A stretch of DNA of 64,000 nt, from positions 672,001 through 736,000 of the forward strand of contig CBDFLE010000006.1 in NCBI GenBank assembly GCA_965248925.1. The letters are read 5' to 3'. How positions within the stretch are numbered: the first letter of the stretch is position 1; each line of letters opens with the position of its first letter. This DNA is from Candidatus Multivoradales bacterium. Lineage in GTDB: Bacteria; Acidobacteriota; Thermoanaerobaculia; Multivoradales; J023. Of this stretch, positions 22,891-42,505 are shown piece after piece. The notes below the pieces were generated by a model. The model was not told the origin of the DNA. It ran no database searches and was given only the letters and a program-made list of their open reading frames with translations. A program made the position numbers and the translations under genes.

Positions 22891-24269
22891 GCGACTGCCT
22901 CTCGTACGTCGATCTTGCCGGTCACGGCGGCGGTGATGAGGGCGCTGCGATATTCGCGCAGGCGGTCGATAGCGGTTTCGACCTTGCTGAGGAGAGCATC
23001 GATCTTGGCGGTCTCGCGGTCGAGGTAGTCGGCGATGGCGCGTTGTTCAGCCGCCGGAGGGCACGGTATGGGCCAAGCACGGACGTGACCTTGACCCAAC
23101 TTCACCATGGAGCCGCTGGACCCCCTTGCATCGGCCTCGATCCGGGCTCGCGCATTCGTTGACAGGAGGAAAGAACACATAAATCTCGGCTCGGCAAGGT
23201 CCCGCCTTAACTCCACGCGGTAAAGAAGGTCGGGAATCAAAAGCCTAGGACAGTTCACATCGACAAGCGCAACATCGCCCACTCGGTCAGGGGTGTTCGC
23301 GCGCGAGATCAGCAGGTTGCCAGCGCGAGGAGTCGCCATGCCACTTGCTTCGAACTCATCGTAAAGTGCCTTGTTCTCGGAGGCATGGAAGTGACCATCT
23401 CGCGCCGCACTCAATTTCAGGACGCCCCATTCACCGTGGCCAGCGGGCCAGCTCGCTGCGACGGGGCTCCAGCCTTGATCCAATCGGCGAATTACATTGC
23501 GGAACTGCTTCATCTCCCAATGCTCCGGCACCTCCCCGATCCACTCGACACCAGAGGGTTTGAGCTTGGGGTGGGGGTCGAGGCCGGCCTGGCGGGCGGC
23601 GTCGGGGGGAAGGCCGCGGGTGACGGTGCGGGAGATGAGGGCGGTGCGCTTCTCCTTCATGCGTTCGATCAAGGCGCGTTTCTTCGCTACCAACGTGTCG
23701 ATCTTTGCGGTCTTGTGGTCGAGGAAGTTGGCGATGGCGCGTTGTTCCTTGAACATCGGAAGAACCACAGGCAATCTGGCCACCTTCTCGACTGAAATTC
23801 GACGTAGCGCAGCACCAGCAAGTTGGAGCAAGATGTTCTGCTGCAGCAAGCTGTCGTTGAGCCAGTACTCGAGAAACTGGGAGTCGAGCATTGCTACCCT
23901 GGGAGAAATGATAACAAGCGAACTCGCTACTACGAATTCTACTCCAGTACGGACAACAGCTGTCCTACCTACAGTCCCATCCTTGCTAAATAAAACATCA
24001 CCGTATTTGGGCTGGCAACCGGTGTGCGCAAGATATTCAAAACTCTCCTTCGCGGTCCAAAGACAACTCACCACATCGATGTTTCCATCCGAAATGTCGA
24101 CCGTAGACACAAACGGGTAATCGGCACTTGAGAGATCAGGCGAGATATGTGCGCCGTCGGTCACGCGCATGCTCATTCGTTTCAACCGGTCAACGCTCCA
24201 ACCCTCCGGCAGTTCACCCAACCACTCGATCCCACTCGGCTTGTATTTCGGATAGGGCGAGAGCTTCAC
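22887..24269 (-). CDS. hsdS: Type I restriction enzyme specificity subunit
   Basis: Duplicated PSG.EW.GE.P..W and EQRAIA..LD..TAKID conserved regions flanking two TRDs; ends AAVTGKIDV. Confidence 0.95.
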   Translation of the reverse strand: MKLSPYPKYKPSGIEWLGELPEGWSVDRLKRMSMRVTDGAHISPDLSSADYPFVSTVDISDGNIDVVSCLWTAKESFEYLAHTGCQPKYGDVLFSKDGTVGRTAVVRTGVEFVVASSLVIISPRVAMLDSQFLEYWLNDSLLQQNILLQLAGAALRRISVEKVARLPVVLPMFKEQRAIANFLDHKTAKIDTLVAKKRALIERMKEKRTALISRTVTRGLPPDAARQAGLDPHPKLKPSGVEWIGEVPEHWEMKQFRNVIRRLDQGWSPVAASWPAGHGEWGVLKLSAARDGHFHASENKALYDEFEASGMATPRAGNLLISRANTPDRVGDVALVDVNCPRLLIPDLLYRVELRRDLAEPRFMCSFLLSTNARARIEADARGSSGSMVKLGQGHVRAWPIPCPPAAEQRAIADYLDRETAKIDALLSKVETAIDRLREYRSALITAAVTGKIDVREAVA

Positions 24270-26407: not shown

Positions 26408-26517
26408 GCAAGGTCCTCGATTTATGCGACAAGGGCTAGGAGAGACCGCGGCCACGTCCGGCCATCGGCCGCCGCCTGTCAGGACCGATGGTAGCCTCGA
26501 CTCAAGGAGGAACACCA

Positions 26518-26853
26518 ATGGACGACTCTCACCCGAACCCCCTTCAACCCGATACCGAGTACACGAAAGTATTGGCAATCATCGCCGGACTGATGCTGCT
26601 GATGGCTCTCAGCTTCTCTAGCTTGATTCTGACCGGCGCCGACGAACCTATTTTCTTGCTCATGTTCTGCGCTGCAGTGTTGTGGACTCTTACCGCCGGT
26701 GTGGCGGTACTTTATCGTCTTCGCCGCCTTCGCGGCTGGCGCTTCGCCACCAGCATCGCCAACGTCATGCTGATCTTCCAGTTCCCCCTGGGCATGGGAG
26801 CCGTCGGCTACTGGCTCTTTGTCACCCGTAAAAGAGAGATGGGAAGCGGCTAG
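26518..26853 (+). CDS. Small membrane protein
   Basis: AAGGAGG RBS before ATG 26518; three to four hydrophobic segments. Confidence 0.65.
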   Translation: MDDSHPNPLQPDTEYTKVLAIIAGLMLLMALSFSSLILTGADEPIFLLMFCAAVLWTLTAGVAVLYRLRRLRGWRFATSIANVMLIFQFPLGMGAVGYWLFVTRKREMGSG

Positions 26854-28767: not shown

Positions 28768-29055
28768 TCAGAACATGCTGCCTCCAGGCCGTTTGCCGAC
28801 CACCATCACACAGTCCCCGAAGTTGGTGGTGCCCATTTTCTGCGAATCGATACAGCAGTATGTGCCGTTGTGAACATCACCCGGCGAATACCACTCGGCG
28901 CAGATCCGGCTAGCACAATCGAAGACCAACGAGGCGTTGATCCAGGTACCACCGCCACCGCCACCGCTACCGCCGCCCCGTGCGGCCTCGGTGGGCAAAT
29001 CCAGCGCCAGGACGGTCAGCCCGATCAAGGCAACAACCCACAGAATCCTCTTCAT
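28768..29055 (-). CDS. Small secreted Gly-linker, Cys-rich peptide (95 aa)
   Basis: GAGGAGG RBS; MKRILWVVALIGLTVLAL signal; GGGSGGGGGG; five Cys. Confidence 0.75.
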   Translation of the reverse strand: MKRILWVVALIGLTVLALDLPTEAARGGGSGGGGGGTWINASLVFDCASRICAEWYSPGDVHNGTYCCIDSQKMGTTNFGDCVMVVGKRPGGSMF

Positions 29056-29117
29056 CTCGACCTCCTCTGGTCTGCTGTGCACCGCAACCGTGTCGGCGGC
29101 GGTGCTTTCGTTAGATC

Positions 29118-29148
29118 TACGCGTAGATCGTCGGTCATTCGTATCAGG
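29118..29148 (-). promoter_or_regulatory. Candidate ECF promoter (TGATAC ... CGCGTA)
   Basis: Minus strand CCTGATACGAA-N10-TCTACGCGTA; near-identical motif at 32288. Confidence 0.65.
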
Positions 29149-29224
29149 TCGGCGCAGAATCTCTGGCCGACCTGCTTCTGCTAATCTGGCCCCCAAGATC
29201 AAACTAAACCCTGTCGGACAAGCG

Positions 29225-29809
29225 ATGCAAAGCTCAGAGCCAGAGGACATTACCCGGCTGCTGCTGGCCTGGAGCCAAGGCGACAGCGCCGCCTTCGAGC
29301 AGCTGTCGGCAGAGGTCTACAAGCGCCTCTCGAATCTGGCCGCCAGCTATCTGCGGGGGGAACGCCCGGATCACACTTTGGAAACCGCCGCCTTGGTTAA
29401 CGAAGCATTCCTGCGCTTGGTCGACCAGCATAGTGTGCGCTGGCGCGACCGCTCACACTTTTTCGCCATCGCCGCCAAACTGATGCGCCGCATCTTGGTC
29501 GACCACGCTCGCCGCCACGCGGCCAGCAAACGGGGCGGTGGGGCACAGAAGATTCTCTTCGAAGACCTGGCCCAGCTCAGTCCACGCCAGCACCCCGATC
29601 TGCTGGCCCTCGACGATGCCCTGCAAGACCTGGAACGGCGTGACGGCGAACTCGCCGAAGTGGTCGTCTTACGTTACTTTGGCGGCTTGACCAAAGAGGA
29701 GGTGGCGGAGGTCATGGGCCGCTCGACGGCGACCATCGCCCGCCGCTGGCGAACCGCTCGCGCCTGGCTCTATGCCTACCTGGTAGAAGGCGAGGTCGAT
29801 GAGTTCTGA
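29225..29809 (+). CDS. ECF sigma factor, kinase-associated type
   Basis: ITRLLLAW, HTLETAALVNEAFLRL, MRRILVDHARR..KRGG, LRYFGGL, WRTARAWL. Confidence 0.92.
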   Translation: MQSSEPEDITRLLLAWSQGDSAAFEQLSAEVYKRLSNLAASYLRGERPDHTLETAALVNEAFLRLVDQHSVRWRDRSHFFAIAAKLMRRILVDHARRHAASKRGGGAQKILFEDLAQLSPRQHPDLLALDDALQDLERRDGELAEVVVLRYFGGLTKEEVAEVMGRSTATIARRWRTARAWLYAYLVEGEVDEF

Positions 29810-32255
29810 AGGCTGGCGGCAAGCCAATCGGATCTTCGAGCTGCTGGTGGAGCGACCGCCAGCAGAGTGGGCAGCCCTGCTTGATCGCGAGTGCGGTAGC
29901 GATCGACCACTGCGCACCGCCGTTGAACGTTGGCTAAACGCCGACCGCGCCGCCGAGGATTTTCTGGAGACCCCTCTGGTCCACCCAGCCACCATCCCAG
30001 CCGCGGCCGACGACAACCCGCCGACCCATGTGGGCCCCTACCGCCTGCTCGAGAGGATCGGTCAGGGCGGCATGGGCACCGTCTATCTGGCCCTCCGCGA
30101 CGATGACACTTTTCGCCGCCAGGTCGCGGTGAAAATCATCTCCCAAAGCGCTTCAAGTGCCGCCGCCCGCCAACGCTTCAGCAGCGAGCGACGCATCCTC
30201 GCCACCCTGGAGCATCCATGGATCGGGCGCATCTACGATGGCGGCGAGACCGACGACGGCACTCAATACCTGGTGATGGAGCATATTCGCGGCCTGCCCA
30301 TCGACCAATTCTGCGACAGGCGACAGGTCGCCTTCAGCGACCGCCTCGAATTGTTGGTCAAGGTCTGTTCAGCCGTTCACTACTCGCATCAAAAACTGGT
30401 CGTCCACCGCGACCTCAAGCCGTCCAACATCCTGGTCACCGAAGACAGTGAGCCCAAGCTGCTCGACTTTGGTGTCGCCAAGTTGCTACAGCCCCTGGCC
30501 GGGACGGCAGAGACCGCACCCACCGCCACTTGGATGCGCCCGCTGACACCACACTACGCCAGCCCGGAGCAGGTTCGAGGTGAGGCGGTGTCGACCGCCA
30601 GCGACGTCTACTCCCTCGGCGTGTTGCTGTTCAAATTGCTCACCGGCGAACTGCCTTTCGGCCTCGCCGGCAAGTCGCTGCGGGAAATCGAAGAGATCGT
30701 CACTGACCACGACCCTCCTCCCCCCAGTTCACTGGCCACTGCCGGCGAGGTGGGCCGAACCGCCTGGCGAGACCTCGACTGCATCGTCCTCAAGGCCCTG
30801 CGCGGCGAGCCGGCCGAGCGCTACAGCTCGGCCGAACGGCTGGGCGAAGATCTACGCCGCTTTCTCGATGGCTTTCCAGTCACCGCCAGGCGTGGCAACT
30901 TCGCTTATCGCAGCCGCAAGCTGCTGCGCCGCCATCGGTTGGCGGCTACTTTCGCCGCCCTGCTGGCTGGCTTGCTGACCGCCTACACCGTCAACGTCGC
31001 CGTCTTGGCCCAGCGCCTGGAGCGAGAACGGGCCGCTCTGGAAGAGGTGGTGGACTTCTTTGTCGACATCTTCCAAAGCGCCGGACCGATGGTCGCCGCC
31101 GGCCGTGCCGTCACCGTCCGCCAGGCGATCGACGACAGCGCCGAGAGGCTCGCCAATGAACTGACCGACCAACCGCAGGTCAGAGCCGAGATCCTAGGCG
31201 CGCTGGCCGACATCTATCTCGATTTCGGCGACGCCGAACCAGCCCTGCTGCACTCGCGCCAAGCCCTCGAACTATACCGCGGCCTGGCTGGCGATCACGG
31301 CGACCGAGTAGCTGCCGGGCTCGACCGGGTCGGCGCCGCCTTGCGTGAGGTTTGGCAACCGGAGGAAGCCGAACGGCTCGGCCAACAAGCCCTGGCCTGG
31401 TTTCGAGCCCATCCCGACCACAATCCGCGCGATCTGGTGCGCGCTCTGAACAACCTGAGCACCCTCTATTGCTATCGCGGCGACTATGCCGGCGCCGCGC
31501 CCTATGCCCACGAAGCCTTGGAGCTGGCCCGTTCGCAACTCGGCGAAAGCGTTCACGAAACCGCCGTAGCGACGGTCCAACAAGGCCAAGTGCTATTCAA
31601 TCTGGGCCACCGGGAACGTGCCGAGCAGATGTACCAGCGCGGTCTCGAACTCTACCGCCTACGCTTTGGTGAACCTCACCCCCTGCTAGCTACCCTGCAC
31701 CAGAACTTGGCACGCATCCACGCCGAACGAGGTGATGTCGAACGTGCCCGCGAGAGCTTCCGTCAGGCCGACAGCCAATATCTGCGGATCTTCGGCGCCA
31801 ACTACCACGAGCGGGTCAAATCCCTATCCGCGCTGGGCCGTCTGGCGAGTGAAAACGCCCACCCCGAGGAAGCCGCGGAGTTGTTTCAGCAGGCTCTCGA
31901 AATCGGCCTCGCAAACGGTTCTCCACCCTACATTCTGCGTCCGGCCATTGGCCTGGCCGCCACCGCCCTCGAAAGCGACAGCTGCGCCAACGTCATCCCT
32001 TGGCTGCGCCGCGGCCTCGCCGCCTTTGCAGCCGACAGCGCAACCCTGGCACCTGTCCCTGAACCGCCTTGGCAGTACTTCGAGTTGCAAAGTCTGCTTG
32101 GCGAATGTTTGGCCCGAGACGGCTCGCGGCGTGAGGCCCGCGAGCTAATGCGGCGCAGCCTGGCACGGCTCGAACAATTGCGTCCCGCCGATCTGCCGCT
32201 GCTAGCGCGAGCGCGGCAACGGCTGGCGATGACGCAGCCAGACGAGGGAATCTGA
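29799..32255 (+). CDS. Membrane Ser/Thr protein kinase with TPR repeats
   Basis: GQGGMGTVY, VAVK, HRDLKPSN, DFG, YASPEQ; TM; TPR units. Confidence 0.93.
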   Translation: MSSEGWRQANRIFELLVERPPAEWAALLDRECGSDRPLRTAVERWLNADRAAEDFLETPLVHPATIPAAADDNPPTHVGPYRLLERIGQGGMGTVYLALRDDDTFRRQVAVKIISQSASSAAARQRFSSERRILATLEHPWIGRIYDGGETDDGTQYLVMEHIRGLPIDQFCDRRQVAFSDRLELLVKVCSAVHYSHQKLVVHRDLKPSNILVTEDSEPKLLDFGVAKLLQPLAGTAETAPTATWMRPLTPHYASPEQVRGEAVSTASDVYSLGVLLFKLLTGELPFGLAGKSLREIEEIVTDHDPPPPSSLATAGEVGRTAWRDLDCIVLKALRGEPAERYSSAERLGEDLRRFLDGFPVTARRGNFAYRSRKLLRRHRLAATFAALLAGLLTAYTVNVAVLAQRLERERAALEEVVDFFVDIFQSAGPMVAAGRAVTVRQAIDDSAERLANELTDQPQVRAEILGALADIYLDFGDAEPALLHSRQALELYRGLAGDHGDRVAAGLDRVGAALREVWQPEEAERLGQQALAWFRAHPDHNPRDLVRALNNLSTLYCYRGDYAGAAPYAHEALELARSQLGESVHETAVATVQQGQVLFNLGHRERAEQMYQRGLELYRLRFGEPHPLLATLHQNLARIHAERGDVERARESFRQADSQYLRIFGANYHERVKSLSALGRLASENAHPEEAAELFQQALEIGLANGSPPYILRPAIGLAATALESDSCANVIPWLRRGLAAFAADSATLAPVPEPPWQYFELQSLLGECLARDGSRREARELMRRSLARLEQLRPADLPLLARARQRLAMTQPDEGI

Positions 32256-32287
32256 GCTGCTCGTCGAGCGTAAACCACCGCCCGGGG

Positions 32288-32319
32288 CCTGATACGAAAC
32301 GCAAGGGTTTCTGCGCGTA
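32288..32319 (+). promoter_or_regulatory. Candidate ECF promoter, possibly giving a leaderless mRNA
   Basis: CCTGATACGAA-N11-TCTGCGCGTA ending 7 nt before ATG 32327; no SD visible. Confidence 0.65.
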
Positions 32320-32326
32320 AACGGGC

Positions 32327-32869
32327 ATGAGCGCATCAAAAAACCCCGTCTATTCCATCGCCCTCCACTTTCTGCTCATCGCCCTGGCCACCGGCACCGT
32401 TCTGCTGGCACGCCAGAACAGCGAACTTAACCGCCGACTCAACCCGCCACCACCTCCACCGGCCTTCACCGAGGGGGAAGTGGTCGAGCCCTTCCAGGTA
32501 GTCGACCTTGAAGGCATGGCATCACAGATCGAACCCGCCTCGGCTGAGCGTCGACAGCGGGTCTTGGCCTTCTTCACCACCACCTGCGCGGTCTGCCGTG
32601 AGAACCAAGAGAGATGGCGCCAACTGTATGAGCAGGCGAGCCAACGGGTCGAGATCACCGGCATCAGCTTCGATCCTCCCGAGGTGACCCGCGCCTACGC
32701 CGAGGAAATAGCCATCCCTTTTCCGGTGGTCACGCTGCGCAACCCGGACGATTTTTCGTCCCGCTACCCGGTCGACCGCGTGCCACTGACGGTCAATATC
32801 GATGCCGCGGGCAAGGTGCGAAACTCGTGGCTCGGCCTACTTCCCGACGAGGCCTTGGCAAGCATCTGA
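32327..32869 (+). CDS. Membrane-anchored TlpA-like thioredoxin-fold protein
   Basis: N-terminal TM; FFTTTCAVC (CxxC); VP cis-Pro motif; ID..GKV. Confidence 0.85.
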   Translation: MSASKNPVYSIALHFLLIALATGTVLLARQNSELNRRLNPPPPPPAFTEGEVVEPFQVVDLEGMASQIEPASAERRQRVLAFFTTTCAVCRENQERWRQLYEQASQRVEITGISFDPPEVTRAYAEEIAIPFPVVTLRNPDDFSSRYPVDRVPLTVNIDAAGKVRNSWLGLLPDEALASI

Positions 32870-33380
32870 CCCGCCACGCGGCACCGCCACCCGGCTTTGC
32901 CCCACTACTCCACCACACTTCGGGGCCGGTCACCCGCCGGCTCCCCAGCCCCGGTTCGCAGCCCCACTAGTTCCTCCCTCTAGCAGCTGGTTCGCGCGAC
33001 GACGGAGTCACGGTTAAATCTCATATCGACCCGGGACAAAATCGACTCGCATGAATATCCACAATGTAAAAATGTTGAATAGAGAATGCACCTAAGATTG
33101 CGTTTTGCATGTTAAGTTCGAACCGTTCACAGGCGGAATCTTTAGACAATTGGCCCTCGCCGTAAGACTGGATGTAACACTATCCGTGCCACAATCCGAT
33201 CCTGTGGACCTCGTATCAGAACATAGCTTGGGAGAGCCAGTGGAAATATCAGCGGATTTTCGTCCGTCACCCTCGGCGGCAGTCTTGCCGTCGACGAGCG
33301 ACTGCGCTAGGCCGCAATCGCCTCTAGGCGGCGATTTTCCGACCCGGCGACCTCCCTGCATCAAGCTGGGAAGCCGAGAA

Positions 33381-35060
33381 GTGAGCGTTGTTGCGCTATC
33401 CAGCTGGGCTGCCGCCAGACTGCCAACCGGTGGCAGGCTTGATTTCGTCGGCCGGCTCGACAATCGCGAGGCACTTTTGCGTTCGCTACCCGCTCCGCCC
33501 CCCTTAGCCAACGTTGAGGATGCTGACCTCCTAGCCCACGCCTATGGGGCGTGGGGCATCGACTTTCTACGCCGCCTGCTGGGCTCTTTCGCCTTGCTTA
33601 TCTGGGATCCGTCGCGGGGGGTGGTAATTCTCGCTCGCGACCCCCTCGGCGGACGGACTCTCAACTACTCGCTGAGCGCCGACCTGCTGGTCCTCGGCAG
33701 GGACCCGACCGACGTCCTGGATCATCCAAAGATCAGCGACGAGCTAGACCCGGCCTGGTTGGCCGCTTATTTCGCATTGCAAGAGCCAGCCGACGGACGC
33801 ACGACGTTTGCCCGTGTCCGTGAACTGCCGCCAGGCCATTGGCTCGAAGTAGGGGCTCGACACAGCAAGCTGCACTGCTATTGGTCCACGGCGGATTGGG
33901 CCAGACCGCTAGCCAGCGCGCTACCCAGCTCCCCGGGCGAGGTCGACGAAGAGCTTCGACACCTCTTGCGAGCAGCGGTTCGCTGCCGCCTGCAAGGGGT
34001 CGAGAGTCCCGCGCTGCTGATGAGTGGCGGTCTCGATTCTGTTCCAATCGCGGCGGCTGCCAGGGAAATTCTCGGCCCGGCGAAGCGACTCCTGGCGGTG
34101 TCCTGGGTGTTCCCCAACTACCCTCGAGCCGACGAGAGCGAACTCATCGCCAGCGCTGCCGCATGGTGCCAGCTCGATTCGATTTGCTTACCTTGCGACG
34201 ATCAGCTACCGCTCGGCGATTTCGGCAGCTGGCCCCTGCACCCGGCAACACCTGAGCAAAACCCCTACCGACGTTTTCATCAACGGGCCTATGCCGCCGC
34301 CGCCAAAGGTGGCGCGCGGGTAATGCTGTCGGGAATGTGTGGCGATCAGCTGTGGAGTGGCGCCGAGACCTGGCTTGGCGACGCGCTGCGCCGCGGTCAC
34401 CTCAGTGAGGCTCTGCGGGAAATCACCTGGCAGCTACGGCACGGCCGGCTGCTCAGGCCCGAGTTGCCTCGCTGGCTACGAGCGGCTCGCCAACTCTTGC
34501 GCCCGGCTAGTCAATTCCCCTGGCTGACCGCGACGGCCCGACAGCTGGTACCGCCGCAGCGGCAGAACTGCTACCAGCAGTTTCCTCGCCCGCAGCAGGC
34601 AAGGTTGCTGCTCGGCAGCGCCAACGGCCACGGATTCGCGGTCGAAGCAGCCTTCACCCGCCGCGCCGGCATCGAACTGCGCTATCCACTGCGCGATCGG
34701 CGCTTGATTCAGTTGGCATTGGCCCTGCCAACCTCTGCCCTATATGCCCGCGGCATCGAGCGGGTAGCCTGGCGGCGGGCAGTGGCGGACAGCATTCCCG
34801 AGCGCATCGTCCAGCGCCAGGGGAAGGCCACTTTCGTCGACTTGTTCGCCCGCGGCATCTATCAGCGAGACCGGCCGCGAATCGCCGGGCTGCTCTTCAG
34901 CGCCGACGCGATGTGGCCAGCCTATGTCCGCTCGCACATCGTCCGCCGGGCTTGGGAAAATCGCGACACCGGCTTCGCTGGCCTCCAGCTGTGGCTAGCA
35001 CTGTCGTTAGAGCTGTGGTTGAGAAACCGGGCCAGACCGTTTGGAGGACCCACCTTATGA
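33381..35060 (+). CDS. Asparagine-synthetase-like lasso peptide cyclase (C protein)
   Basis: GRLDNR, GSFALLIWD, LARDPLG, LMSGGLDS, GDQL, RYPLRDRRL; no N-terminal catalytic Cys seen; directly upstream of the precursor; start uncertain. Confidence 0.82.
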   Translation: MSVVALSSWAAARLPTGGRLDFVGRLDNREALLRSLPAPPPLANVEDADLLAHAYGAWGIDFLRRLLGSFALLIWDPSRGVVILARDPLGGRTLNYSLSADLLVLGRDPTDVLDHPKISDELDPAWLAAYFALQEPADGRTTFARVRELPPGHWLEVGARHSKLHCYWSTADWARPLASALPSSPGEVDEELRHLLRAAVRCRLQGVESPALLMSGGLDSVPIAAAAREILGPAKRLLAVSWVFPNYPRADESELIASAAAWCQLDSICLPCDDQLPLGDFGSWPLHPATPEQNPYRRFHQRAYAAAAKGGARVMLSGMCGDQLWSGAETWLGDALRRGHLSEALREITWQLRHGRLLRPELPRWLRAARQLLRPASQFPWLTATARQLVPPQRQNCYQQFPRPQQARLLLGSANGHGFAVEAAFTRRAGIELRYPLRDRRLIQLALALPTSALYARGIERVAWRRAVADSIPERIVQRQGKATFVDLFARGIYQRDRPRIAGLLFSADAMWPAYVRSHIVRRAWENRDTGFAGLQLWLALSLELWLRNRARPFGGPTL

Positions 35061-35263
35061 GCTCAATGAGAGCCACCCCGAAACCCTCTGCTGCGGCAGC
35101 AGCCACCGGCGATGGGAGTTCCAAGAAACTGCGCAAGAGAGCCTACAAGTCGCCTCGGCTGAACGAGTTGGGCGAACTTCTCGACGTCACCATGGGCCCC
35201 TCTCCGGGGCTCGGTGAAAGCGGCAATCCAGCAGTCTTTAGATCCGGCACGAGGAGTCCGTGA
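35057..35263 (+). CDS. Lasso peptide precursor (68 aa)
   Basis: Leader YKSPRLNELG (YxxPxLxxxG), Thr at -2, core GPSPGLGESGNPAVFRSGTRSP with Gly1 and Glu8; GGAGG upstream of the ATG. Confidence 0.85.
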   Translation: MSSMRATPKPSAAAAATGDGSSKKLRKRAYKSPRLNELGELLDVTMGPSPGLGESGNPAVFRSGTRSP

Positions 35264-38200
35264 TAATCAAGAAATCCCTGAATGGAGGTAGCCAATGGCT
35301 GTTGCTGATGGCCATGCCGGCGGCTCTGCATGCGATCAGCGAGCCTGTCGAAGGCTTGATCTACACCTATGAGAACACCACCTCCGGAGCGGTCGATGAC
35401 GTCGCGACTCCCTGTGTCAGCCCCTTGGTGCGCAGTTTCTCGGTCAGCGACAGCTTCACGGTCAGCGGCATCGCCGTCGGCCTGAACATCGATCACACTT
35501 ACCGCGGCGACCTGGTCGTCACGCTGATCGCCCCCGACGCGACCAGCTTGCAGTTGTTCGCCCAGAACGGCGGTGACGGCGACGACAACCACGATATCTG
35601 GATGTCGACCAACACCGAGGGCGCGCTCGACGATGGAGATGTCGACCCCACCGCCGAACCTTTCTACTCACGGTTGGTCTCGATCGCCGGCCTCGGCGGC
35701 TTCTACACCGGCAACGCATCAGGGACCTGGAGTCTACAAGTCTGCGATTTCTTTGCTGTCGACTCAGGCACCTTCAACCGCGCCCGCCTGGTGCTCTCGA
35801 GCAGCACTGCGGCGACCACCGTCGGCACCTCCTCGGTCACCTACGATTGGGGGGCCAACGGTAACAACGCGGCCTTTGTCGGCGCCACCATCAGCGGTGT
35901 CACCCTGAGTCAGACCAGCACCACGGATTTCGGCGGCGCCGGCACCAACGTGCCGGCCAGCTCGTTCTTCAATCTGCGCACCACCACCACGTCGCTGAGC
36001 GGCGAGTCCGGCTACTACAGCCTCTACATGGATGCTCTGAACATCGTTGGCGCCGGCACCGAGAGCGAGACGGTCGGCGAGCAGACCACCTTCGGCTTCA
36101 GTCCGGAAGTCCGGGATCTCACTTTCGCCCTCAAGGACATTGATTTTCTGAGCACTGACTTCGAAGATCTAATGTGCGTTTTGGGTCTCGACGCTGCCGG
36201 CAACTCGGTACCCTTCACTATCGCCCTCGGCACGGCCCATCAGCTGGCTGGCAATACCATCGAGGGCGATACCGCGACCCCCAACACCCAGACCGAGGCC
36301 TCCGCAACGGTGGTCTTCGATGGGCCGGTGGCCAGTGTGCGAATTGACCATATGCAGAGCGACGACGCGGCGGTCGGCCCAGGTGATCAGCTGGTCGGCA
36401 TCTCCGACTTCACCTTCACCGCTTTTGACTTCGGCGACGCCCCCAGCACTTTCAGCACTCAGCTCGGCGGCGGCGCCCGCCATGTGCTGAGCGACCGCTC
36501 GTTATTCCTCGGAGCAAATCCTCCCGACGGCGAGTCCGACGGTCAGCCCGGCAGCGCCGCGACCAGCGACGACACCACCGCCGTCGGCGGCGTCGATGAT
36601 GAGGATGGCGTCGCCAGCTTCCCGAACTACGACGGCACCAGCTCGACCTACACGGTGAGCGTCACCGCCACCAACCTGTCGACCACCACCGCCGCCAATC
36701 TGGTGGGCTACATCGATTGGAATCGAGATGGCGACTTCGCCGACGCTGACGAGCGCTCGGCGACGGTCTCGATACCGGCCAACACCGCCAGCGCCACCGC
36801 GTTCAATGTCACTTGGTCCTCAGTACCCGCCAACGCGGGCGGCACCACTGCCACTTACGCCCGCTTCCGCATCGCCACCTTGGCCAGCGAAGTCGAATCG
36901 CCCAGCGGCTTGGCGGCCAATGGCGAGGTCGAGGACTACCCGATCATCATCGACACCCTACCGGTCGCGCTGTCCTATTTCCTTGCCGAGCGGCAAGGCA
37001 GCGAACTGATCGTCAACTGGGCCACCGAGACCGAAACCTCGACCGTCGGCTACGCCATCCTCGGACGGGGCAAGAGTGGTTGGCAGCGCCTGCAAGCCAA
37101 GCTGATCCCAGCCCGTGCCCTCGACTCGCTGAAGCCTCAGCACTACCGAATCGAACTGGACGCCGGTGGTTTGGAGACCGGCAGTGACTTGGCGACCGTG
37201 CTGCTCGAAGACTGGGATGTCGAAGGTCGCGCCATACAGTGGGGGCCGTTCGAGATTGGCACCGCCTACGGCCGCCAAAACACCTTGCGGCCGATCGGTT
37301 GGACGAAGATCCGCCACGACGCGGAATCCGCGGTGGTCAGCTCGCGAGCGGCCGCCAAGGCGGTTCCGCGACTCGACAATGGCGCCGTACTGGCCGAACT
37401 GCGAGTCGACCGCGAGGGCCTGCAACGAGTTCTCTTCGAAGATCTGCTCAACGCCGGGGTGGACCTCGAAGGAGTCTCCATCGACCGGCTGCGCTTGCGC
37501 CAGGCCCGCGATCAGCAGCCGATACCGATCACCGTCGCAGGGTCTGCCGGCCGGCCAGAATCCATGGGTCCCGGCGGCTGGATTGAGTTCCGCGGCCTAC
37601 CTCGCGGTGACAACCTCTACACACGCCAACGGGTCTACCAACTGGTGCTGGGCAAGCCAAGGCGGGTGCGCTTGCACGACTCACGGCCCAGGCGCGGCGC
37701 CCTCGAGAGTTACCAGGCGAGCGTGCAGATCGAGCGCGATCTGGTCTACAGCTTGGGCTCCCCCAATGGCGACCCCTGGTTCGAGGCCGCCGTGCTGGCC
37801 CAGGCCAGCCCCGCGGAGCGTCGCTTCACCTTGAACATCGATCAGTTGGCGTCTACCTCCGGCCGCTTGCAAGTCGGCCTTTGGGGAGTCACCAACTGGC
37901 CCGGCGCGGCTCCTGACCACTCGATCGAGATCTACTTCAACGGCACCCTGCTGGCCGCCGAGCGCTTCGACGGCCTGACCCAGCGCGACTTCGATCTGGA
38001 GGTGCCCACAGGAGTGCTGTTGGCAGGAGCCAACGAGCTGACCGTGCGCTTGCCCGGCGATACCGGCTACGCCTTTGACCTGGTCCACATCGATCGCTAC
38101 GAACTGAGTTTCGCCCGCCACTTCGTTGCTCGCGACGGCCGGCTGAGCTTCACCGCCGAGCGGGGCTCGATCACCGTCGAGGGATTGTCTACCCCGGAGG

Positions 38201-39438
38201 TGGTGGTTTACAGCAGTTCGGGAAGAGTGCGTCTGACCGGTGTCGTCGTCGAACCCTCCGGCAGCGGCTGGCGTGCGCGGTTTAGTCTGCCGCGCCTGCG
38301 TCCGGGGGTCGATAGCGAACAGACCTGGGTCGACGTGGTCGAGACCCGGACCTTGGCGACACCTGAGGTCCGCGCGCCCCGCGCGACGGCCGAGGACTTG
38401 CTCACCGGCCCCGCCGACTACGTGATGATCAGCCACCCAGCCTTCACCAACGACCTCGGAGCGCTGATCGCCGCCCGCCTAGCCGAGGGTTTGACGGTGA
38501 AGGTGGTCGACATCTTCGACCTCTACCAAACCTACTCGGGAGGTGAGATCGATCCCGAGGCGATCCGTTCGTACCTGCGCCACGCCGCCCGGCGACTGAG
38601 TACACGCTACGTGCTGTTGGTCGGCGGTGACACCTACGACTATCTGGATCACCTGCGGCTCGGCTCGGTCAGCTTCGTACCCACCTTGTACGCTCAGACC
38701 GACTCGATCGTGCGCTTCTCACCAGCCGATTCCCTACTTGCCGACATCGATGGCGACGGCTTGCAAGACTTGGCGATCGGCCGCCTACCGGCTCGCAGCC
38801 AGTCGGAGCTGCGACTGCTGATCGACAAAACCCTGCGCTATCCCTCGACTCCAGCCGCCGCGGTGCTAGCCGCCGACAGCAGTGACGACCGCCACTTCTC
38901 GACGCTCAGCGAAGAACTAGCGAGCTTCGTGCCGAACGGCTGGCCAGTGACCTCGGCCTACATCGACAGGGATGGGGTCGAGCAGGCCCACGACATCCTG
39001 CTCGAAGCTATCGCCCAAGGGGCCGCGTTGGTCAACTTCGTCGGTCACTCGGGACCCAGCGTATGGTCCTTCCAGGGCTTGTTCTCGACTACCGACAGTG
39101 CCGCCCTGAGCAACACTAGAGCGCCAACGGCGGTGATTCAATGGGGCTGTTGGAACACCTACCACGTCGCCCCCGAATACGACACTCTGGCGCATAGCCT
39201 GCTGCTCTCCGGCAGCCAGGGCGCCGCCGCCGTGGTGGGTTCGGCAACTCTGTCGCAGGAGATCTCGGACCGCCTACTCGGCCCGGCGCTGCTGTCACGA
39301 GCCTTGCAAACCGGCACCCGCCTGGGCGACGCCATCTTGGAGGCCAAGCGGGAAGTAGCGAGCGGTGGCGGAGATCTACGCGACGTGATCGTCGGCTGGA
39401 CCTTGCTCGGCGACCCGGCATTGGTCATCAACCCTTGA
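35260..39438 (+). CDS. Large secreted multidomain C25 (gingipain-family) cysteine peptidase with proprotein-convertase P-like and GEVED domains
   Basis: IDHTYRGDL..L..P and GTWSLQV.D (P domain); DFGDAP, DDEDGV, IDWNRDGDF, GEVEDY; YVLLVGG, AIGRLP, FVGHSG (His), WGCWN (Cys), LLGDP. Confidence 0.88.
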   Translation: MIIKKSLNGGSQWLLLMAMPAALHAISEPVEGLIYTYENTTSGAVDDVATPCVSPLVRSFSVSDSFTVSGIAVGLNIDHTYRGDLVVTLIAPDATSLQLFAQNGGDGDDNHDIWMSTNTEGALDDGDVDPTAEPFYSRLVSIAGLGGFYTGNASGTWSLQVCDFFAVDSGTFNRARLVLSSSTAATTVGTSSVTYDWGANGNNAAFVGATISGVTLSQTSTTDFGGAGTNVPASSFFNLRTTTTSLSGESGYYSLYMDALNIVGAGTESETVGEQTTFGFSPEVRDLTFALKDIDFLSTDFEDLMCVLGLDAAGNSVPFTIALGTAHQLAGNTIEGDTATPNTQTEASATVVFDGPVASVRIDHMQSDDAAVGPGDQLVGISDFTFTAFDFGDAPSTFSTQLGGGARHVLSDRSLFLGANPPDGESDGQPGSAATSDDTTAVGGVDDEDGVASFPNYDGTSSTYTVSVTATNLSTTTAANLVGYIDWNRDGDFADADERSATVSIPANTASATAFNVTWSSVPANAGGTTATYARFRIATLASEVESPSGLAANGEVEDYPIIIDTLPVALSYFLAERQGSELIVNWATETETSTVGYAILGRGKSGWQRLQAKLIPARALDSLKPQHYRIELDAGGLETGSDLATVLLEDWDVEGRAIQWGPFEIGTAYGRQNTLRPIGWTKIRHDAESAVVSSRAAAKAVPRLDNGAVLAELRVDREGLQRVLFEDLLNAGVDLEGVSIDRLRLRQARDQQPIPITVAGSAGRPESMGPGGWIEFRGLPRGDNLYTRQRVYQLVLGKPRRVRLHDSRPRRGALESYQASVQIERDLVYSLGSPNGDPWFEAAVLAQASPAERRFTLNIDQLASTSGRLQVGLWGVTNWPGAAPDHSIEIYFNGTLLAAERFDGLTQRDFDLEVPTGVLLAGANELTVRLPGDTGYAFDLVHIDRYELSFARHFVARDGRLSFTAERGSITVEGLSTPEVVVYSSSGRVRLTGVVVEPSGSGWRARFSLPRLRPGVDSEQTWVDVVETRTLATPEVRAPRATAEDLLTGPADYVMISHPAFTNDLGALIAARLAEGLTVKVVDIFDLYQTYSGGEIDPEAIRSYLRHAARRLSTRYVLLVGGDTYDYLDHLRLGSVSFVPTLYAQTDSIVRFSPADSLLADIDGDGLQDLAIGRLPARSQSELRLLIDKTLRYPSTPAAAVLAADSSDDRHFSTLSEELASFVPNGWPVTSAYIDRDGVEQAHDILLEAIAQGAALVNFVGHSGPSVWSFQGLFSTTDSAALSNTRAPTAVIQWGCWNTYHVAPEYDTLAHSLLLSGSQGAAAVVGSATLSQEISDRLLGPALLSRALQTGTRLGDAILEAKREVASGGGDLRDVIVGWTLLGDPALVINP

Positions 39439-40397
39439 GCGAGGCCGCTGCCTCGGCCACCAACATCACCAGCGCCAGCGCCGGCGACATCGCCAACCCG
39501 GCACCGGTGCTGACCCTGTGTTTGCACCGCCGGGCGCAACTTGGCTGGCGCTACCGCCTAGCCGGTTTAGACCTGCTCTGCGATCACCCGCTGAGCGAGC
39601 TGGAGACCGTGACCGCGGTCCGTCAGGCTGCCCCCGCGCCAACCGTCTTCGAACCTCGAGCCGGCCACCGCGTTTTCCACGACCAGGCTTGGGTGGGCGG
39701 TAGCCAGCTGCGCCTAGCTACCTGGTGGGATGGTGATCGCTGCTGGATCGAGCTCGCCGATCAGGCCGCCATCGGCATTGATCGCTCGACCGGCAACCTC
39801 TGGGTTTTTCGCCGCCACCCCCATCCTGATCCACGCTGGCTGGAGCATTGCTTGCTGGGGCCGCCCCTGCTACTCGGCCTGGCCAGCCGAGGCACCTTCG
39901 CCTTGCACGCTTCGGCGATCGATGTCGAGGGCCAGCTGGCCCTCGTCGTCGGCCCCTCGGGGGCCGGCAAGTCGACCCTCGCCGCCGCCGCCCGCGACGG
40001 CTGCAAGCGTTGGGCGGACGATCTGGTGCCGGTAGCACTCGGCGACCGAGAACTCGTCGCCTGGGCCGGCTTTCCCCAGCTCAAGCTATCCCGGTCACAG
40101 CGCCGCCGATTGCTGCTGGGGCCGGGTCAACGACCGGTGGCGGCGGTCTTCATCTTGCAGCCAGCCCGAGCCACAGATCCGCCCCGCTGCACTCGCTGGA
40201 CGGGAATCGAGGCGGCTGCCGCTTGGCTGCGCCACACCATGGTGAGCCGGCTCTTCGACTCCACCCTGCTGGAGAGCCATCTCGACTTCGTCGCCGAGGC
40301 CAGCCGCAGAGTGCCGACCTTCGGCTTGCGGGTACCCCGCGACCGCCGCCGCCTGGGTGAGGTTCAGCGGCTCCTAGAGCAAACTCTAGCCGCTTGA
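39435..40397 (+). CDS. HPr kinase-like P-loop kinase
   Basis: LHASA, GPSGAGKST, ADD; start uncertain. Confidence 0.8.
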   Translation: MSEAAASATNITSASAGDIANPAPVLTLCLHRRAQLGWRYRLAGLDLLCDHPLSELETVTAVRQAAPAPTVFEPRAGHRVFHDQAWVGGSQLRLATWWDGDRCWIELADQAAIGIDRSTGNLWVFRRHPHPDPRWLEHCLLGPPLLLGLASRGTFALHASAIDVEGQLALVVGPSGAGKSTLAAAARDGCKRWADDLVPVALGDRELVAWAGFPQLKLSRSQRRRLLLGPGQRPVAAVFILQPARATDPPRCTRWTGIEAAAAWLRHTMVSRLFDSTLLESHLDFVAEASRRVPTFGLRVPRDRRRLGEVQRLLEQTLAA

Positions 40398-40507
40398 GAG
40401 TCTTTCTGAATAAGCCGCTCAAGGCGGCTTCCCGAGCGCCGCGGGCTTCGGGATCGCCTCCACATGTAGTATCTTCGTCCGCCAAGAGCACTACATCTTG
40501 AGGCCCA

Positions 40508-41191
40508 GTGGGGAAGGAAGCCACCTTGACTCAGATCCAGACCACCCAGTTCGAGAATCTCTTCATCGGCATCGCCGGCATGATCGGCGCTGGTAAATCG
40601 ACTCTCGCCACGCTGCTCGCAGAGCATCTCGAGATCGATGTCTACTACGAGCCGGTGAAAGAGAACGAGTACCTGGAAGACTTCTACCGCGACACGCCGC
40701 GCTACGCCTTCGCCACCCAGATCTACTTGCTCAACCGCCGCTTCCAGCAGCACCAGGAGATCATTTGGCGCGGCCGCTCGGCGGTCCAGGACCGCACCAT
40801 TTACGAAGACTCGATCTTCGCCAAGATGCTCGCCACCTCGGGTTTGATGGACGAGCGCGACTACCGCACCTACACCCAGCTGTTTCGCCACATGTCGAAT
40901 TTCATGTGCAAGCCGAACGTCATCGTCTACCTTGATGTCGATCCCCAGAAGTCGCTCGAACGAATCCGTTCGCGCGGTCGTAAGATGGAGAACAGCATCT
41001 CCTTGGAGTACCTCACCGCCCTCTACCAGGGCTACGAAGAGTTCATCGAGGACATCTCACGGATCATCCCGGTCATCCGCGTCGACTACGAACGCTTCGC
41101 CACCGCCGAAGAGATGGCCGAGGTGATTCAGCGCGACTACCTGGATCAGAGCTTCTTGCGCCAAGCGACGCGGTTTGACGTGACCCGTTGA
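40508..41191 (+). CDS. Deoxynucleoside kinase family protein
   Basis: GMIGAGKST, YEPV, QIYLLNRRFQQ, DRTIYED, RIRSRGRKME. Confidence 0.92.
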   Translation: MGKEATLTQIQTTQFENLFIGIAGMIGAGKSTLATLLAEHLEIDVYYEPVKENEYLEDFYRDTPRYAFATQIYLLNRRFQQHQEIIWRGRSAVQDRTIYEDSIFAKMLATSGLMDERDYRTYTQLFRHMSNFMCKPNVIVYLDVDPQKSLERIRSRGRKMENSISLEYLTALYQGYEEFIEDISRIIPVIRVDYERFATAEEMAEVIQRDYLDQSFLRQATRFDVTR

Positions 41192-41209
41192 AGGAACTCG
41201 CTCCCTGAG

Positions 41210-42505
41210 TCAAAAACCTGCACGCCCCGCGATTCGCCAGGCTAGAAGGACCACGTAGCTCACCGATGCGGCTGCCAGCAGCGACCCGAAGTACCTATCG
41301 GCCCGCTCGCTGAGTCGGTGCAAGCCAAAGATCCCACCGTAGACCAGTGGGACCATTCCGAAGTAGTGGCGGGATGCACTCCAATGTACGCCGAGATTTG
41401 CGTGATTGAGAAAACCCGCTGACAGGAATAGCAAGACAGTCAAGACGGCGGAGCCCAAGGAGACTACGGCGAAGGGCCCTTTTTTCGCCCGCAGCTCGAG
41501 CAGCGACCAAGCCAAGTTGCACAGTGCTAGGGCCAGCAATAGCACAGCGTACTCACGCGGAATGACCTTCCACACATGCCGCACATTCACCAGGTCGACC
41601 GCGAGAATCTTCAGGAACTCCGCCGATGATTGAACTGGAAGCACAAAACTCCCAAACCACTCAGCGACTTCTGGCGACCCAACAACACCCCCAAGACGCC
41701 GCCAATTCAACAGCAACAGAAGCGGGATACCGCCAAGCGGCGCCAAGAGCGCGATATGTTGCCAAGCTAGGAGGCGCGCGGACGCGCGGCGAGCGCTTAC
41801 TAGAGCTGCTACTACAGGCACGATGACCACCGGCAGATTCGTCAGCTTCACCCAAACAGCAGCACAAGCACCGAACGCACAGGCGACGACTAAGTATCTC
41901 CGAGGCATCGTGAGGTGCGACACCAAAAGCATCAATGTCAAGTTGACACTCAACAGCGAGAATGAGTCGTTTCCCAGCGTGCTGTAATAGTGAGTATTGG
42001 TTGCAAGTGCGAGCAAGGCAAACAGGTAACCATAAACCGCACTGCCACCGACCAGGCTCGTCAGCCGAGAAACCAACGGGATAAAAAGAAGAGCCCCCGC
42101 TAGCTGAGCGAGGACGCCAACGATCCGCAGTAGGCGTATTCGCATCTCAGCATTGATACCAAGAACCCGAATAAGGACGTTCGGCACAGCTAGAATCGCA
42201 TAATAAAGCGGCGGCTGCTGTGCCTCGTAAGAACGGCCAGCCAGCCCCATGGAACGCCTGGTTCCATCGTACGACCTAGGCTGTCTCGACGAGAGGTCTT
42301 GTGAGATCTCGAAGGTGTGATCTGCTATCGCATCATTCGGCCGCGGCAAAGAAAGCTCACCAACGCGCTCGATATAGTCATAGTGTGCAATCTCGTCACG
42401 GGGGCTCCAGATCCCGGACTGGATCGAGTAGACACAGTTGAGCGCTCCTATCATCAGCAAGGAAGCAAGTAGTATTCTCCGCAAATACGATTGTAAGTCT
42501 GACAT
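41210..42505 (-). CDS. GT-C fold membrane glycosyltransferase-like protein (DUF2142/PMT-like)
   Basis: PRDEIAHYDY, YEAQQPPLYY, ND, K motif after TM; many TM helices. Confidence 0.7.
   Translation of the reverse strand: MSDLQSYLRRILLASLLMIGALNCVYSIQSGIWSPRDEIAHYDYIERVGELSLPRPNDAIADHTFEISQDLSSRQPRSYDGTRRSMGLAGRSYEAQQPPLYYAILAVPNVLIRVLGINAEMRIRLLRIVGVLAQLAGALLFIPLVSRLTSLVGGSAVYGYLFALLALATNTHYYSTLGNDSFSLLSVNLTLMLLVSHLTMPRRYLVVACAFGACAAVWVKLTNLPVVIVPVVAALVSARRASARLLAWQHIALLAPLGGIPLLLLLNWRRLGGVVGSPEVAEWFGSFVLPVQSSAEFLKILAVDLVNVRHVWKVIPREYAVLLLALALCNLAWSLLELRAKKGPFAVVSLGSAVLTVLLFLSAGFLNHANLGVHWSASRHYFGMVPLVYGGIFGLHRLSERADRYFGSLLAAASVSYVVLLAWRIAGRAGF

Follow-up and report, generated by a model that had tools for sequence, protein, structure and literature searches.

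B1, a PqqD-type RRE protein, and B2, a transglutaminase-like protein, are the usual maturation genes of lasso-peptide operons. In the astexin-type clusters of proteobacteria, a dedicated lasso isopeptidase, which is a serine prolyl-oligopeptidase-like enzyme, probably has the finished peptide as its substrate and no part in biosynthesis, and these clusters keep a B gene. The operon described here likewise has a dedicated non-B protease, but the protease is a C25 cysteine peptidase and there is no B gene. Closer in content is the paeninodin type, including the bsf cluster of Bradymonas sediminis, which shares with our locus a YxxPxL motif at leader positions -17 to -12, an Asn-synthetase-like cyclase, an HPr-kinase-like protein, and a conserved core Ser3; in the bsf cluster, the HPr-kinase-like BsfK phosphorylates Ser3 of the lasso precursor together with B1 (PMC10368454). 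Compared with that type, our operon is without B1, B2, an ABC transporter, and a nucleotidyltransferase; it has a cyclase of a separate clade, a 1392-aa, apparently secreted C25 protein encoded between precursor and kinase, and a core that is strongly conserved between families and phyla. The linear polyphosphorylated peptide (LPP) clusters of Bacillota also have a YxxP-type leader, an HPr-kinase-like enzyme, and a coexisting canonical lasso cluster. They employ a discrete RRE and a non-B2 (SipW-like) leader peptidase and have no cyclase (PMC13381572), whereas our locus has a cyclase and a C25 peptidase but no RRE of its own. Lastly, PorU, the C-terminal signal peptidase/sortase of the type IX secretion system (T9SS; PDB 6za2), matches the C25 protein over ~700 residues, comprising the catalytic domain with its His/Cys dyad and the preceding region. 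By contrast to PorU, the module here is C-terminal to a P-domain and a GEVED domain, or to SdrD_B repeats in paralogues, and is found in Acidobacteriota, linked to a RiPP operon. In the literature outside subscription journals we found no published description of a link between a lasso peptide and a C25, gingipain, or PorU protein, and a 2026 review of interlocked peptides makes no mention of C25, gingipain, PorU, Acidobacteri, or HPr.

The locus lies in a 64-kb stretch of DNA that was analyzed as a whole (hereafter the window). Four genes follow one another on its + strand: cyc', encoding an Asn-synthetase-like, lasso-type macrolactam cyclase (33381..35060; Pfam, NCBIfam, orthologues, and tree); A', encoding a 68-aa precursor peptide (35057..35263; ORF and an alignment of 26 homologues); a gene for a PorU-like C25 cysteine peptidase of 1392 aa with a predicted signal peptide (35260..39438; Pfam, NCBIfam, and profile comparisons); and K', encoding the 320-aa HPrK', an HPr-kinase-fold P-loop protein and putative precursor Ser kinase (39435..40397; motifs and fold match). 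Each gene overlaps the next by 4 bp of stop and start codons (ATGA at 35057, GTGA at 35260, TTGA at 39435). These overlaps and the four ORFs can be read directly in the sequence, as the preliminary description had proposed. Its GTG start for cyc' at 33381 is also retained; the open frame permits starts back to 33105.

The absence of B1, B2, and an ABC exporter from the 64 kb, which the same description had reported, was borne out by both ORF and six-frame scans. No PqqD or Transglut_core3 match was obtained for any of the 41 ORFs that are 110 aa or longer (8 ORFs scanned against Pfam at E ≤ 0.01 and 33 at E ≤ 1e-6), every PF13471 and PF05402 match in six-frame searches of the whole genome falls outside the window, and the sole ABC-transporter match in the window is a P-loop-only one (E 0.006) in the kinase-like protein. 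The operon therefore contains neither the PqqD-type RRE nor the B2 that typify a lasso cluster. No Pfam match at E ≤ 1 was obtained for the 495-aa membrane protein of the window or for membrane protein X of the gammaproteobacterial loci described below. A promoter/terminator scan of 32200-41300 yielded 0 promoter-like sites and five terminator-like sites against 4.6 expected, and is uninformative.

The product of cyc' matches Pfam Asn_synthase (E 9e-33), with GATase_7 also matched, and its gene adjoins that of the precursor, as expected of a lasso cyclase. Its best NCBIfam match is the lasso cyclase model NF033535 (E 4.6e-59) at 200.6 bits, below the cut-off of 525; the canonical cyclase C of the same genome, at 328.2 bits, is below this cut-off as well. 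Orthologues that are 39-50% identical were found in 21 loci, and a branch with an SH-aLRT of 99 splits them from seven canonical lasso cyclases. Judged by this tree, cyc' is a clade of its own, apart from the canonical lasso cyclases.

The precursor, MSSMRATPKPSAAAAATGDGSSKKLRKRAYKSPRLNELGELLDVTMGPSPGLGESGNPAVFRSGTRSP, starts at an ATG with GGAGGA (35044-35049) 8 nt ahead of it, and divides into a leader (residues 1-46, 35057-35194) and a predicted core (residues 47-68, 35195-35260). It is not a chance ORF, since homologues adjoin the cyclase in 34 of 36 related loci. The leader contains Y30-K-S-P-R-L35, that is, YxxPxL at -17 to -12, and T45 at -2; the core starts with Gly1, where lasso cores have Gly or else Ala, Ser, or Cys, and has Glu8, within the positions (7-9) at which lasso precursors have Glu or Asp. 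Y-17, P-14, G-8, T-2, G1, and S9 are kept in all 26 aligned homologues, Leu at -12 in 25, and Ser or Thr at core position 3 in 24, while position 8 is Glu in 20 and Asp in six. Candidate phosphorylation sites are thus Ser9 (26/26) and Ser/Thr3 (24/26). With determinants for both a leader-binding protein and a leader peptidase, the peptide looks like a standard lasso precursor; this motif conservation and the Asn_synthase match uphold the initial assignment of the first two genes. We also observed that conservation of the core, across families and phyla, is unusually strong for a RiPP.

For HPrK', matches to HMMs are weak (TIGR04352, E 1e-3), and a search with exact peptide words, using the kinase only as query, found no relative. 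Its AlphaFold2 model (pLDDT 84.7) nevertheless matches HprK/P (1kkl) in Foldseek with E 6e-6 and a TM-score of 0.56 on the target, which confirms the earlier designation as HPr-kinase-like; PEP carboxykinases are matched too. H158 and S160 (H-x-S-A), the Walker A motif G-x-S-G-x-G-K-S-T (G173-T181, 39951-39977, + strand), and D195-D196 are invariant in 16 of 16 kinases. An HPr-kinase-like kinase within the cluster is a hallmark of the paeninodin/bsf type. We considered whether residues 25-126, the N-terminal domain, might hide an RRE, and rejected this because the domain is all-beta in the model and not RRE-like.

The C25 protein matches Peptidase_C25 (PF01364) over residues 1054-1389 with E 5e-61 and 207.4 bits against a cut-off of 23, covering profile positions 1-373 of 374. 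Its catalytic residues, His1263 in GHSGP (39046-39048, + strand) and Cys1297 in WGCW (39148-39150, + strand), show no variation among 11 orthologues. In a profile alignment with gingipain R (RgpB, 1cvr; E 3.6e-9) they fall on His211 and Cys244, in agreement with the peptidase assignment made initially. N-terminal to the PorU-like module (residues 693-1389) are a P-domain (P_proprotein, residues 70-177) and GEVED (residues 481-562). In a profile comparison, residues 693-1389 align with residues 23-786 of PorU (6za2; E 1.7e-21), and the PorU model NF033707 gives 138.5 bits, short of its cut-off of 420; by these measures the protein is homologous to PorU, and not an equivalog. The T9SS cargo model TIGR04183 had no match in this genome (G000), but none in 14 control genomes either. 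Residues ~1-25, with two lysines, a hydrophobic stretch, and an AxA-like site, resemble a signal peptide when read by eye, as do the N-termini of all 11 orthologues. The protein thus appears to be exported via the Sec pathway, which supports the secretion suggested previously. Prediction of a complex between residues 780-1392 and the precursor scored 0.01 and has no weight either way.

A whole-genome search for PqqD and Transglut_core3, as the preliminary description had recommended, revealed one canonical B1/B2 pair. It belongs to a complete canonical kinase-type lasso cluster (B1, B2, C, precursor, and kinase) ~77 kb downstream on the same contig (C6). B1 (C6:790096-790296) is next to B2 (C6:789687-789953), the only B2-type gene of the genome (NF033537, 71.5 bits, above the cut-off of 33); PF05402 matches start at C6:790096, C6:786275, and C5:2143258. 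The precursor leader of the canonical cluster has the same 17-residue spacing from Y(-17) to the cleavage site and the same T(-2). A ~506-aa ORF with a marginal Transglut_core3 match (28.5 bits here, 26.1 bits in G026) was not accepted as a B2; it belongs to no NCBIfam family and is far from either lasso cluster. Canonical lasso clusters of these lineages also adjoin giant SdrD_B-repeat proteins, and the one at the canonical cluster was rejected as a relative of the C25 protein (BLASTP E 0.085).

B genes also accompany cyc' in relatives. In G033, a single operon contains C25, cyc', A', K', and a 269-aa ORF that reads as a fused B, being B1-like in its N-terminal part and Transglut_core3 in its C-terminal part (E 5e-20). 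G025 and G036 have a PqqD-like domain fused to the precursor, and YxxP is lost; the AlphaFold2 model of the G025 fusion (two-row alignment) has a mean pLDDT of 39.6, too low to use, and its three strands followed by three helices are merely in the order expected of an RRE. At gammaproteobacterial cyc' loci, B1 lies ~6 kb upstream in five of eight, beside a canonical cyclase and kinase, and B2 is also present in four of these five. Overall, searches for a B2-type gene succeeded for 14 of 18 cyc'-bearing relatives and for 14 of 14 further cyc'-bearing genomes. On the other hand, the same four-gene operon is present, with YxxPxL and T-2, in G026 (98% complete), where Pfam and NCBIfam models detect neither PqqD nor B2; in G034 (97% complete) the operon includes a PqqD gene, but no B2 occurs anywhere in the assembly; and no B2 was found in G015 (81% complete). 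B2 in trans can be universal only if the gene has been missed in these assemblies, and the two near-complete genomes argue, at the level of gene content, against strict B2 dependence.

The preliminary description had allowed that C25 homologues might not co-occur with these genes in other genomes. Our survey of their neighbourhoods found that they do co-occur with cyc', precursor, and HPrK' genes: of 36 cyc' loci, 25 have a C25 module next to cyc' and 11 have no C25, and the adjacent genes come in at least four different orders. We found the core C25 subfamily (best E ≤ 1e-143) in 19 of 41 related genomes and cyc' (E ≤ 1e-43) in 17 of these 19; G034 adds a divergent cyc' copy adjacent to C25, and none of the 22 genomes without the subfamily has cyc'. 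In this set, cyc' occurs only where the core C25 subfamily occurs. One could still view the C25 gene as merely a neighbour, a copy of a hugely expanded family that landed in the operon by chance and shares no function with it. The family at large matches 38 of the 41 genomes, with up to 18 matches in each, the cyc'-adjacent copies are not monophyletic but interspersed among non-adjacent paralogues (eight changes on a 46-row tree), and there are the C25-less loci. We consider this improbable, because adjacency survives the changes in gene order, often with 4-bp overlaps, the deep branches of the cyc' clade all have C25 next to the cyclase gene, and the phyletic profiles match almost perfectly. 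Moreover, adjacency is more clustered than in any label shuffle, both per group label on the cyclase and C25 trees (0/500) and for three groups together on the cyclase tree (0/200). It is harder still to credit that the locus is a decayed canonical lasso cluster that lost B1 and B2 and makes nothing, a possibility also raised in the preliminary description. This would account for the missing B genes of the window, but the locus is intact: none of the four frames is interrupted, the peptide core and the catalytic motifs are preserved in 26 precursors, 11 C25 orthologues, and 16 kinases, and dozens of genomes from two phyla show the same arrangement without B genes.

Alternatively, the C25 peptidase might replace B2 by removing the leader or otherwise processing the precursor, in which case the operon would be self-sufficient and B1/B2 elsewhere irrelevant. 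The three B2-less genomes with cyc' (G026, G034, and G015) all have C25 in the operon, and nine C25-less cyc' loci (seven gammaproteobacterial, L036, and L030) are all in genomes with a B-type gene, this being B2 for eight and, for L039 at the edge of the sequence examined, B1 only. The precursor and C25 genes overlap, and a sister kinase/RRE pathway uses a non-B2, RRE-dependent leader peptidase, the SipW-like LppS (PMC13381572). We nonetheless deem such a replacement distinctly unlikely. Because the cyclase depends on ATP and on a free amine at Gly1, it is placed in the cytoplasm, whereas the C25 protein is apparently secreted, with extracellular-type domains (P-domain, GEVED) as well as a signal-peptide-like start in 11 of 11 orthologues. 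In G033, B and C25 share an operon and so are not alternatives there. The apparent complementarity comes from few, related genomes; no examined genome with an informative assembly is without both C25 and a B-type gene, but only about one would be expected by chance. In a further alternative, the peptide would serve the PorU-like modules, either as an acceptor or anchor for sortase-like transpeptidation of giant surface proteins or as a shared activator or inhibitor of the cell's C25 paralogues. The homology of the C-terminal 700 residues to PorU, the presence of several C25 paralogues but usually one cyc' cluster per genome, and the restriction of cyc' to genomes with the C25 subfamily (17/19 plus G034 vs 0/22) are consistent with this. 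So are the interspersed adjacent and non-adjacent copies, a core conserved as if for a fixed cellular partner, and the SdrD_B-repeat neighbours of the canonical clusters. It is unlikely all the same: a Gly1-Glu8 lactam leaves no free alpha-amine for transpeptidation, and at E ≤ 1e-20 no C25 module turns up in six of the eight gammaproteobacterial genomes that carry cyc'-A'-K', so C25 is not needed for the module.

Our preferred reading, to which we assign a probability of roughly 0.5, is a working B-less, kinase-associated lasso module that is matured by B1 and B2 in trans and has the secreted C25 protein as a partner, not as its leader peptidase. The preliminary description had left a choice between B proteins in trans and a distinct C25-linked system. 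The former is now better supported, by the canonical pair ~77 kb away, the identical leader spacing, the fused B of G033, and the C25-less relatives beside B1/B2. Of the latter, the C25 link stands as real and conserved; a role as leader peptidase is unlikely. In such a module, B1, a PqqD-type RRE, would bind the leader and the transglutaminase-like B2 would cut it, both being encoded elsewhere, most likely in the canonical kinase-type cluster downstream. The cyc' enzyme would then adenylate Glu8 and close an eight-residue macrolactam from Gly1 to Glu8, through which the tail is threaded and for which Phe15/Arg16 would probably serve as plugs. K' would phosphorylate a conserved Ser, either the invariant Ser9 or Ser3, and the product is probably phosphorylated. 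The C25 protein would act outside the cytoplasm, on the exported peptide or as a target of it. Comparative genomics marks it as a conserved partner of the peptide module, inherited together with it and coupled to it in translation.

Collectively, these results outline a B-less clade with members in Acidobacteriota and in some Gammaproteobacteria, whose core peptide varies unusually little. It is likely to have been missed or discarded by lasso mining because the tools require B and C side by side. One B1/B2 pair may serve two sets of cyclase, kinase, and precursor, which is relevant to the ways in which RiPP pathways pool their machinery for leader recognition or keep it apart. Common use of B1 is not assured, since the RREs of co-resident pathways can tell very similar YxxP leaders apart (PMC13381572). 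More tentatively, the peptide might be a dedicated small-molecule partner (an acceptor, an anchor, or an on/off switch) of T9SS-independent PorU-like modules that mature giant surface proteins, which we think unlikely. If true, the module would be a new kind of system for sorting surface proteins, having at its centre a lasso-type RiPP that is not an antibiotic. The near-perfect co-occurrence with C25 ties a RiPP to secreted cysteine peptidases/sortases outside type IX secretion, and offers a way to test what the peptide and the expanded C25 giant proteins each do in abundant uncultured soil and sediment bacteria.

Four genes on the + strand of the window are coupled to one another by 4-bp stop/start overlaps. 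The first (33381–35060, with a possible earlier start back to 33105) encodes an Asn-synthetase homologue, cyc'; the second (35057–35263, with GGAGGA upstream) a 68-residue precursor, A'; the third (35260–39438) a 1392-residue C25 peptidase; and the fourth (39435–40397) an HPr-kinase-like protein, K'. The top NCBIfam model for cyc' was the lasso cyclase NF033535 (E 4.6e-59); its score of 200.6 bits lies below the curated cut-off of 525, as does the 328 bits of the undoubted canonical lasso cyclase of the same genome. The C25 protein has a signal-peptide-like segment at its N-terminus, then P- and GEVED domains, and at its C-terminus a Peptidase_C25 domain. When 11 orthologues were combined into a profile, it matched the T9SS sortase PorU (6za2) over residues 693–1389 (E 1.7e-21) and gingipain R (E 3.6e-9), with His1263 and Cys1297, both invariant, aligned to His211 and Cys244 of RgpB; the protein counts as a PorU homologue, but not as an equivalog. 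K' gave weak HMM matches only, and its AlphaFold2 model (16 homologues, pLDDT 84.7) has the P-loop fold of HprK/P and PEP-carboxykinase after an all-beta N-terminal domain. No gene for PqqD (the RRE, B1), for Transglut_core3 (the leader peptidase, B2) or for an ABC exporter was found in the 64-kb window, where the sole ABC_tran match (E 0.006) is P-loop-only and lies inside K'. The preliminary description had reported these overlaps and gene identities and the lack of B1, B2 and an ABC exporter, and was therefore correct on every point that could be tested.

Elsewhere in the window, an ECF sigma factor gene is followed by a Ser/Thr protein kinase gene three times (318–3708, –; 28937–32255, +; 53289–55543, –), with TPR repeats in the kinases of the first two pairs. 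The second pair, together with a thioredoxin-like gene (32327–32869), lies directly upstream of the operon. We also noted a Type I restriction-modification system, HsdR, HsdS and HsdM (19747–26578, –), and a 1652-aa protein of 12 DUF7933 repeats plus DUF11 (55712–60670, –).

With the C25 protein and then the cyclase alignment as probes, related loci were gathered both within the same order and among named MAG records, the latter belonging to Thermoanaerobaculia, Holophagales, other Acidobacteriota and a gammaproteobacterial group including Arenicellales. Of 36 non-redundant loci, 34 have a small ORF homologous to A' adjoining the cyclase; in L030 and L046 a motif scan recovered no such ORF. 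These loci yielded 35 precursors, because L048 carries two. Twenty-six were aligned together, two fusion forms were aligned separately, and seven (from L039, L041, L042, L044, L051, L052 and L057) stand outside both alignments. Counting leader positions negatively from the cleavage site, Y-17, P-14, G-8, T-2, G1 and S9 are present in 26/26 aligned precursors and L-12 in 25/26, while core position 8 is E in 20 and D in 6. Among the unaligned precursors, that of L039 (about 11661–11843, +) has Ile at -2, a kind of lasso leader described in PMC10368454, and that of L051 (about 7383, –), judged by spacing, has Cys at -2 and a core that begins with Ala. The family shares the layout of class II lasso precursors, and its YxxPxL stands at the position that the same paper reports for RRE binding. 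Judged by sequence, the small ORF encodes a genuine and conserved precursor of lasso type, with a predicted product of a Gly1–Glu8 lactam and a 9–20-residue tail. Conservation in the core equals or exceeds that in the leader, which is unusual among RiPPs.

In a maximum-likelihood tree of 43 cyclases (duplicates L033, L034 and L045 excluded), a branch with SH-aLRT 99 parts the 36 cyc' proteins from seven canonical cyclases. A C25 module was found within the available sequence of 25/36 cyc' loci, all deep cyc' branches included. The other 11 are L057 (a 5-kb contig), L054, L030, L036 and seven gammaproteobacterial loci that are nested together as a single clade; L030 and L036 come from genomes with a window-type C25 orthologue (52% and 48% identical, respectively) at another position. 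At least four gene orders occur: cyc'-A'-C25-K' (the window and about 10 others), K'-A'-C25-cyc' (G025 and G036), giant C25-cyc'-A'-K' and cyc'-A'-K'-giant C25, with 4-bp overlaps retained in several of these orders. Across the window's genome and 40 relatives, C25 match strength is bimodal (best E <= 1e-143 in 19, >= 1e-59 or absent in 22); cyc' (E <= 1e-43) occurs in 17/19 genomes with strong C25 and in 0/22 of the rest. As the relatives are not independent, this co-occurrence is offered as a description rather than a statistical test. Both exceptions are among the 19: in G034 the adjacent cyc' copy is divergent, and G017 (86% complete) has none. The cyc'-adjacent C25 modules are not monophyletic, being interleaved with non-adjacent paralogues in a 46-row tree (8 changes, against a shuffle mean of 15.8); the window C25 belongs to a 9-row clade with support 100, all of whose members are cyc'-adjacent. 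The pairing of cyc' and C25 is real and widespread. A conserved secreted protein of about 1210–1290 aa, absent after K' in the window, comes next to K' in four acidobacterial loci, downstream of it (L020:534-4400, –; L028:17096-20812; L029:17040-20672; L032:17020-20730).

The window's genome has only one B2-type gene (C6:789687-789953; NF033537 71.5 bits, above cut-off), adjoined by B1 (C6:790096-790296). The pair lies about 77 kb from the operon, inside a complete canonical kinase-type lasso cluster (L006, G000:C6:780001-799000; 2239–16517 within it, minus strand) that encodes, in order, a giant 1951-aa SdrD_B/CarboxypepD_reg/DUF7467 protein, B1, B2, the cyclase, its own precursor (about 7602 in L006), a 442-aa protein with C-terminal PqqD, an HPrK-like kinase, a methyltransferase and an AMP-binding enzyme. 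The spacing from Tyr to the cleavage site is 17 residues in both the canonical leader and that of A'. The core-fitting parts (cyclase and kinase) are duplicated and the leader-reading parts (B1 and B2) single, as sharing in trans predicts. The LPP study (PMC13381572) shows that co-resident RREs can discriminate between similar leaders, a point against such sharing. A second PqqD and HPrK-like pair lies on contig C5 (L089 about 9040–10380, +; G000:C5:2143.0-2144.4 kb), with no cyclase nearby. A small ORF in this cassette has a YxxPxL-like motif and is accompanied by genes for a lasso-type PqqD (NF033536 E 6e-16) and an HPrK-like protein of 287 aa; the cassette may represent a system of the linear phosphopeptide type or a spare RRE.

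Among the relatives, a B2-type gene is present in 14/18 that bear cyc' (12 by PF13471, E <= 1e-10; G004 and G027 by NF033537), compared with 11/23 relatives without cyc' by PF13471 at the same threshold, and in 14/14 further cyc' genomes (E <= 7e-18), one of them the same assembly as G011. The operon of G033 runs C25, cyc', A', K' and, directly after K', a 269-aa ORF (L049:7745-8554, –) that resembles B1 at its N-terminal end and has Transglut_core3 (E 5e-20) at its C-terminal end; by its domains it is a fused B protein within a C25-type cluster. The precursors of G025 and G036 (L021:9203-9652, –; L022:9205-9633, –) have lost YxxP and carry an N-terminal PqqD-like domain (Pfam E 5e-4 over the whole profile; hhalign against three B1 proteins 88.5%, E 2.7e-6), a fusion found only in these two proteins within a set of 5.8 billion. 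A PqqD gene adjoins the giant C25 gene in G034 and G031. In five of the eight gammaproteobacterial loci, a giant SdrD_B gene stands between cyc'-A'-K' and a canonical set of B1, kinase, precursor and cyclase that faces it; four of the five also have B2, and none was seen in the available L039 stretch. The giant SdrD_B protein of the canonical cluster has further homologues beside the canonical clusters of G025, G036, G029 and G035, and others between the two clusters in L037–L043; giant secreted repeat proteins therefore accompany both kinds of lasso cluster. In 8/8 gammaproteobacterial loci, K' is followed by a polytopic membrane protein of about 440–550 aa (L040:12759-14159, +; same position in L037–L039 and L041–L044). 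This protein has no Pfam match and no homologue in the window's genome or the acidobacterial loci, and is possibly an exporter or ligase.

Four genomes speak, by their gene content, against B1 and B2 acting in trans. In G026 (98% complete, 30 contigs) the window's four-gene arrangement recurs with YxxPxL and T-2 intact, yet neither Pfam nor NCBIfam models detected PqqD or B2 in that genome, and the 17 kb on each side of the operon contain nothing relevant; B2 was likewise not found in G034 (97% complete) or G015 (81% complete), nor by PF13471 search in G019 (85% complete). All B2-less genomes carry C25 in the operon, and the genomes of cyc' loci without C25 show a B-type gene (B2, or for L039 only B1, at the locus edge), as would be expected if C25 could stand in for B2. 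PMC13381572 shows that a non-B2 peptidase can serve as an RRE-dependent leader peptidase. At these numbers, however, about one genome lacking both B2 and C25 is expected by chance, and the apparent Sec export of C25 is at odds with a role preceding ATP-dependent cyclisation. Among the gammaproteobacterial genomes, 6/8 keep the module without C25 anywhere, and C25 is therefore not part of core biosynthesis.

From its genes, the module is predicted to work like paeninodin/bsf-type phosphorylated lasso clusters, from which it differs in having no B1 and B2 in cis and a cyclase of a separate clade. We found no description of lasso peptides linked to C25, gingipain or PorU in the literature searched. 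On the likeliest reading, in which B1 and B2 act in trans on A', cyc' would close the Gly1–Glu8 ring, K' would phosphorylate Ser9 or Ser3, and the peptide would leave the cell and there meet the secreted PorU-like protein. In Acidobacteriota, the peptide may be trimmed or degraded by the C25 protein encoded beside the module, may serve that protein as an acceptor, or may regulate it.
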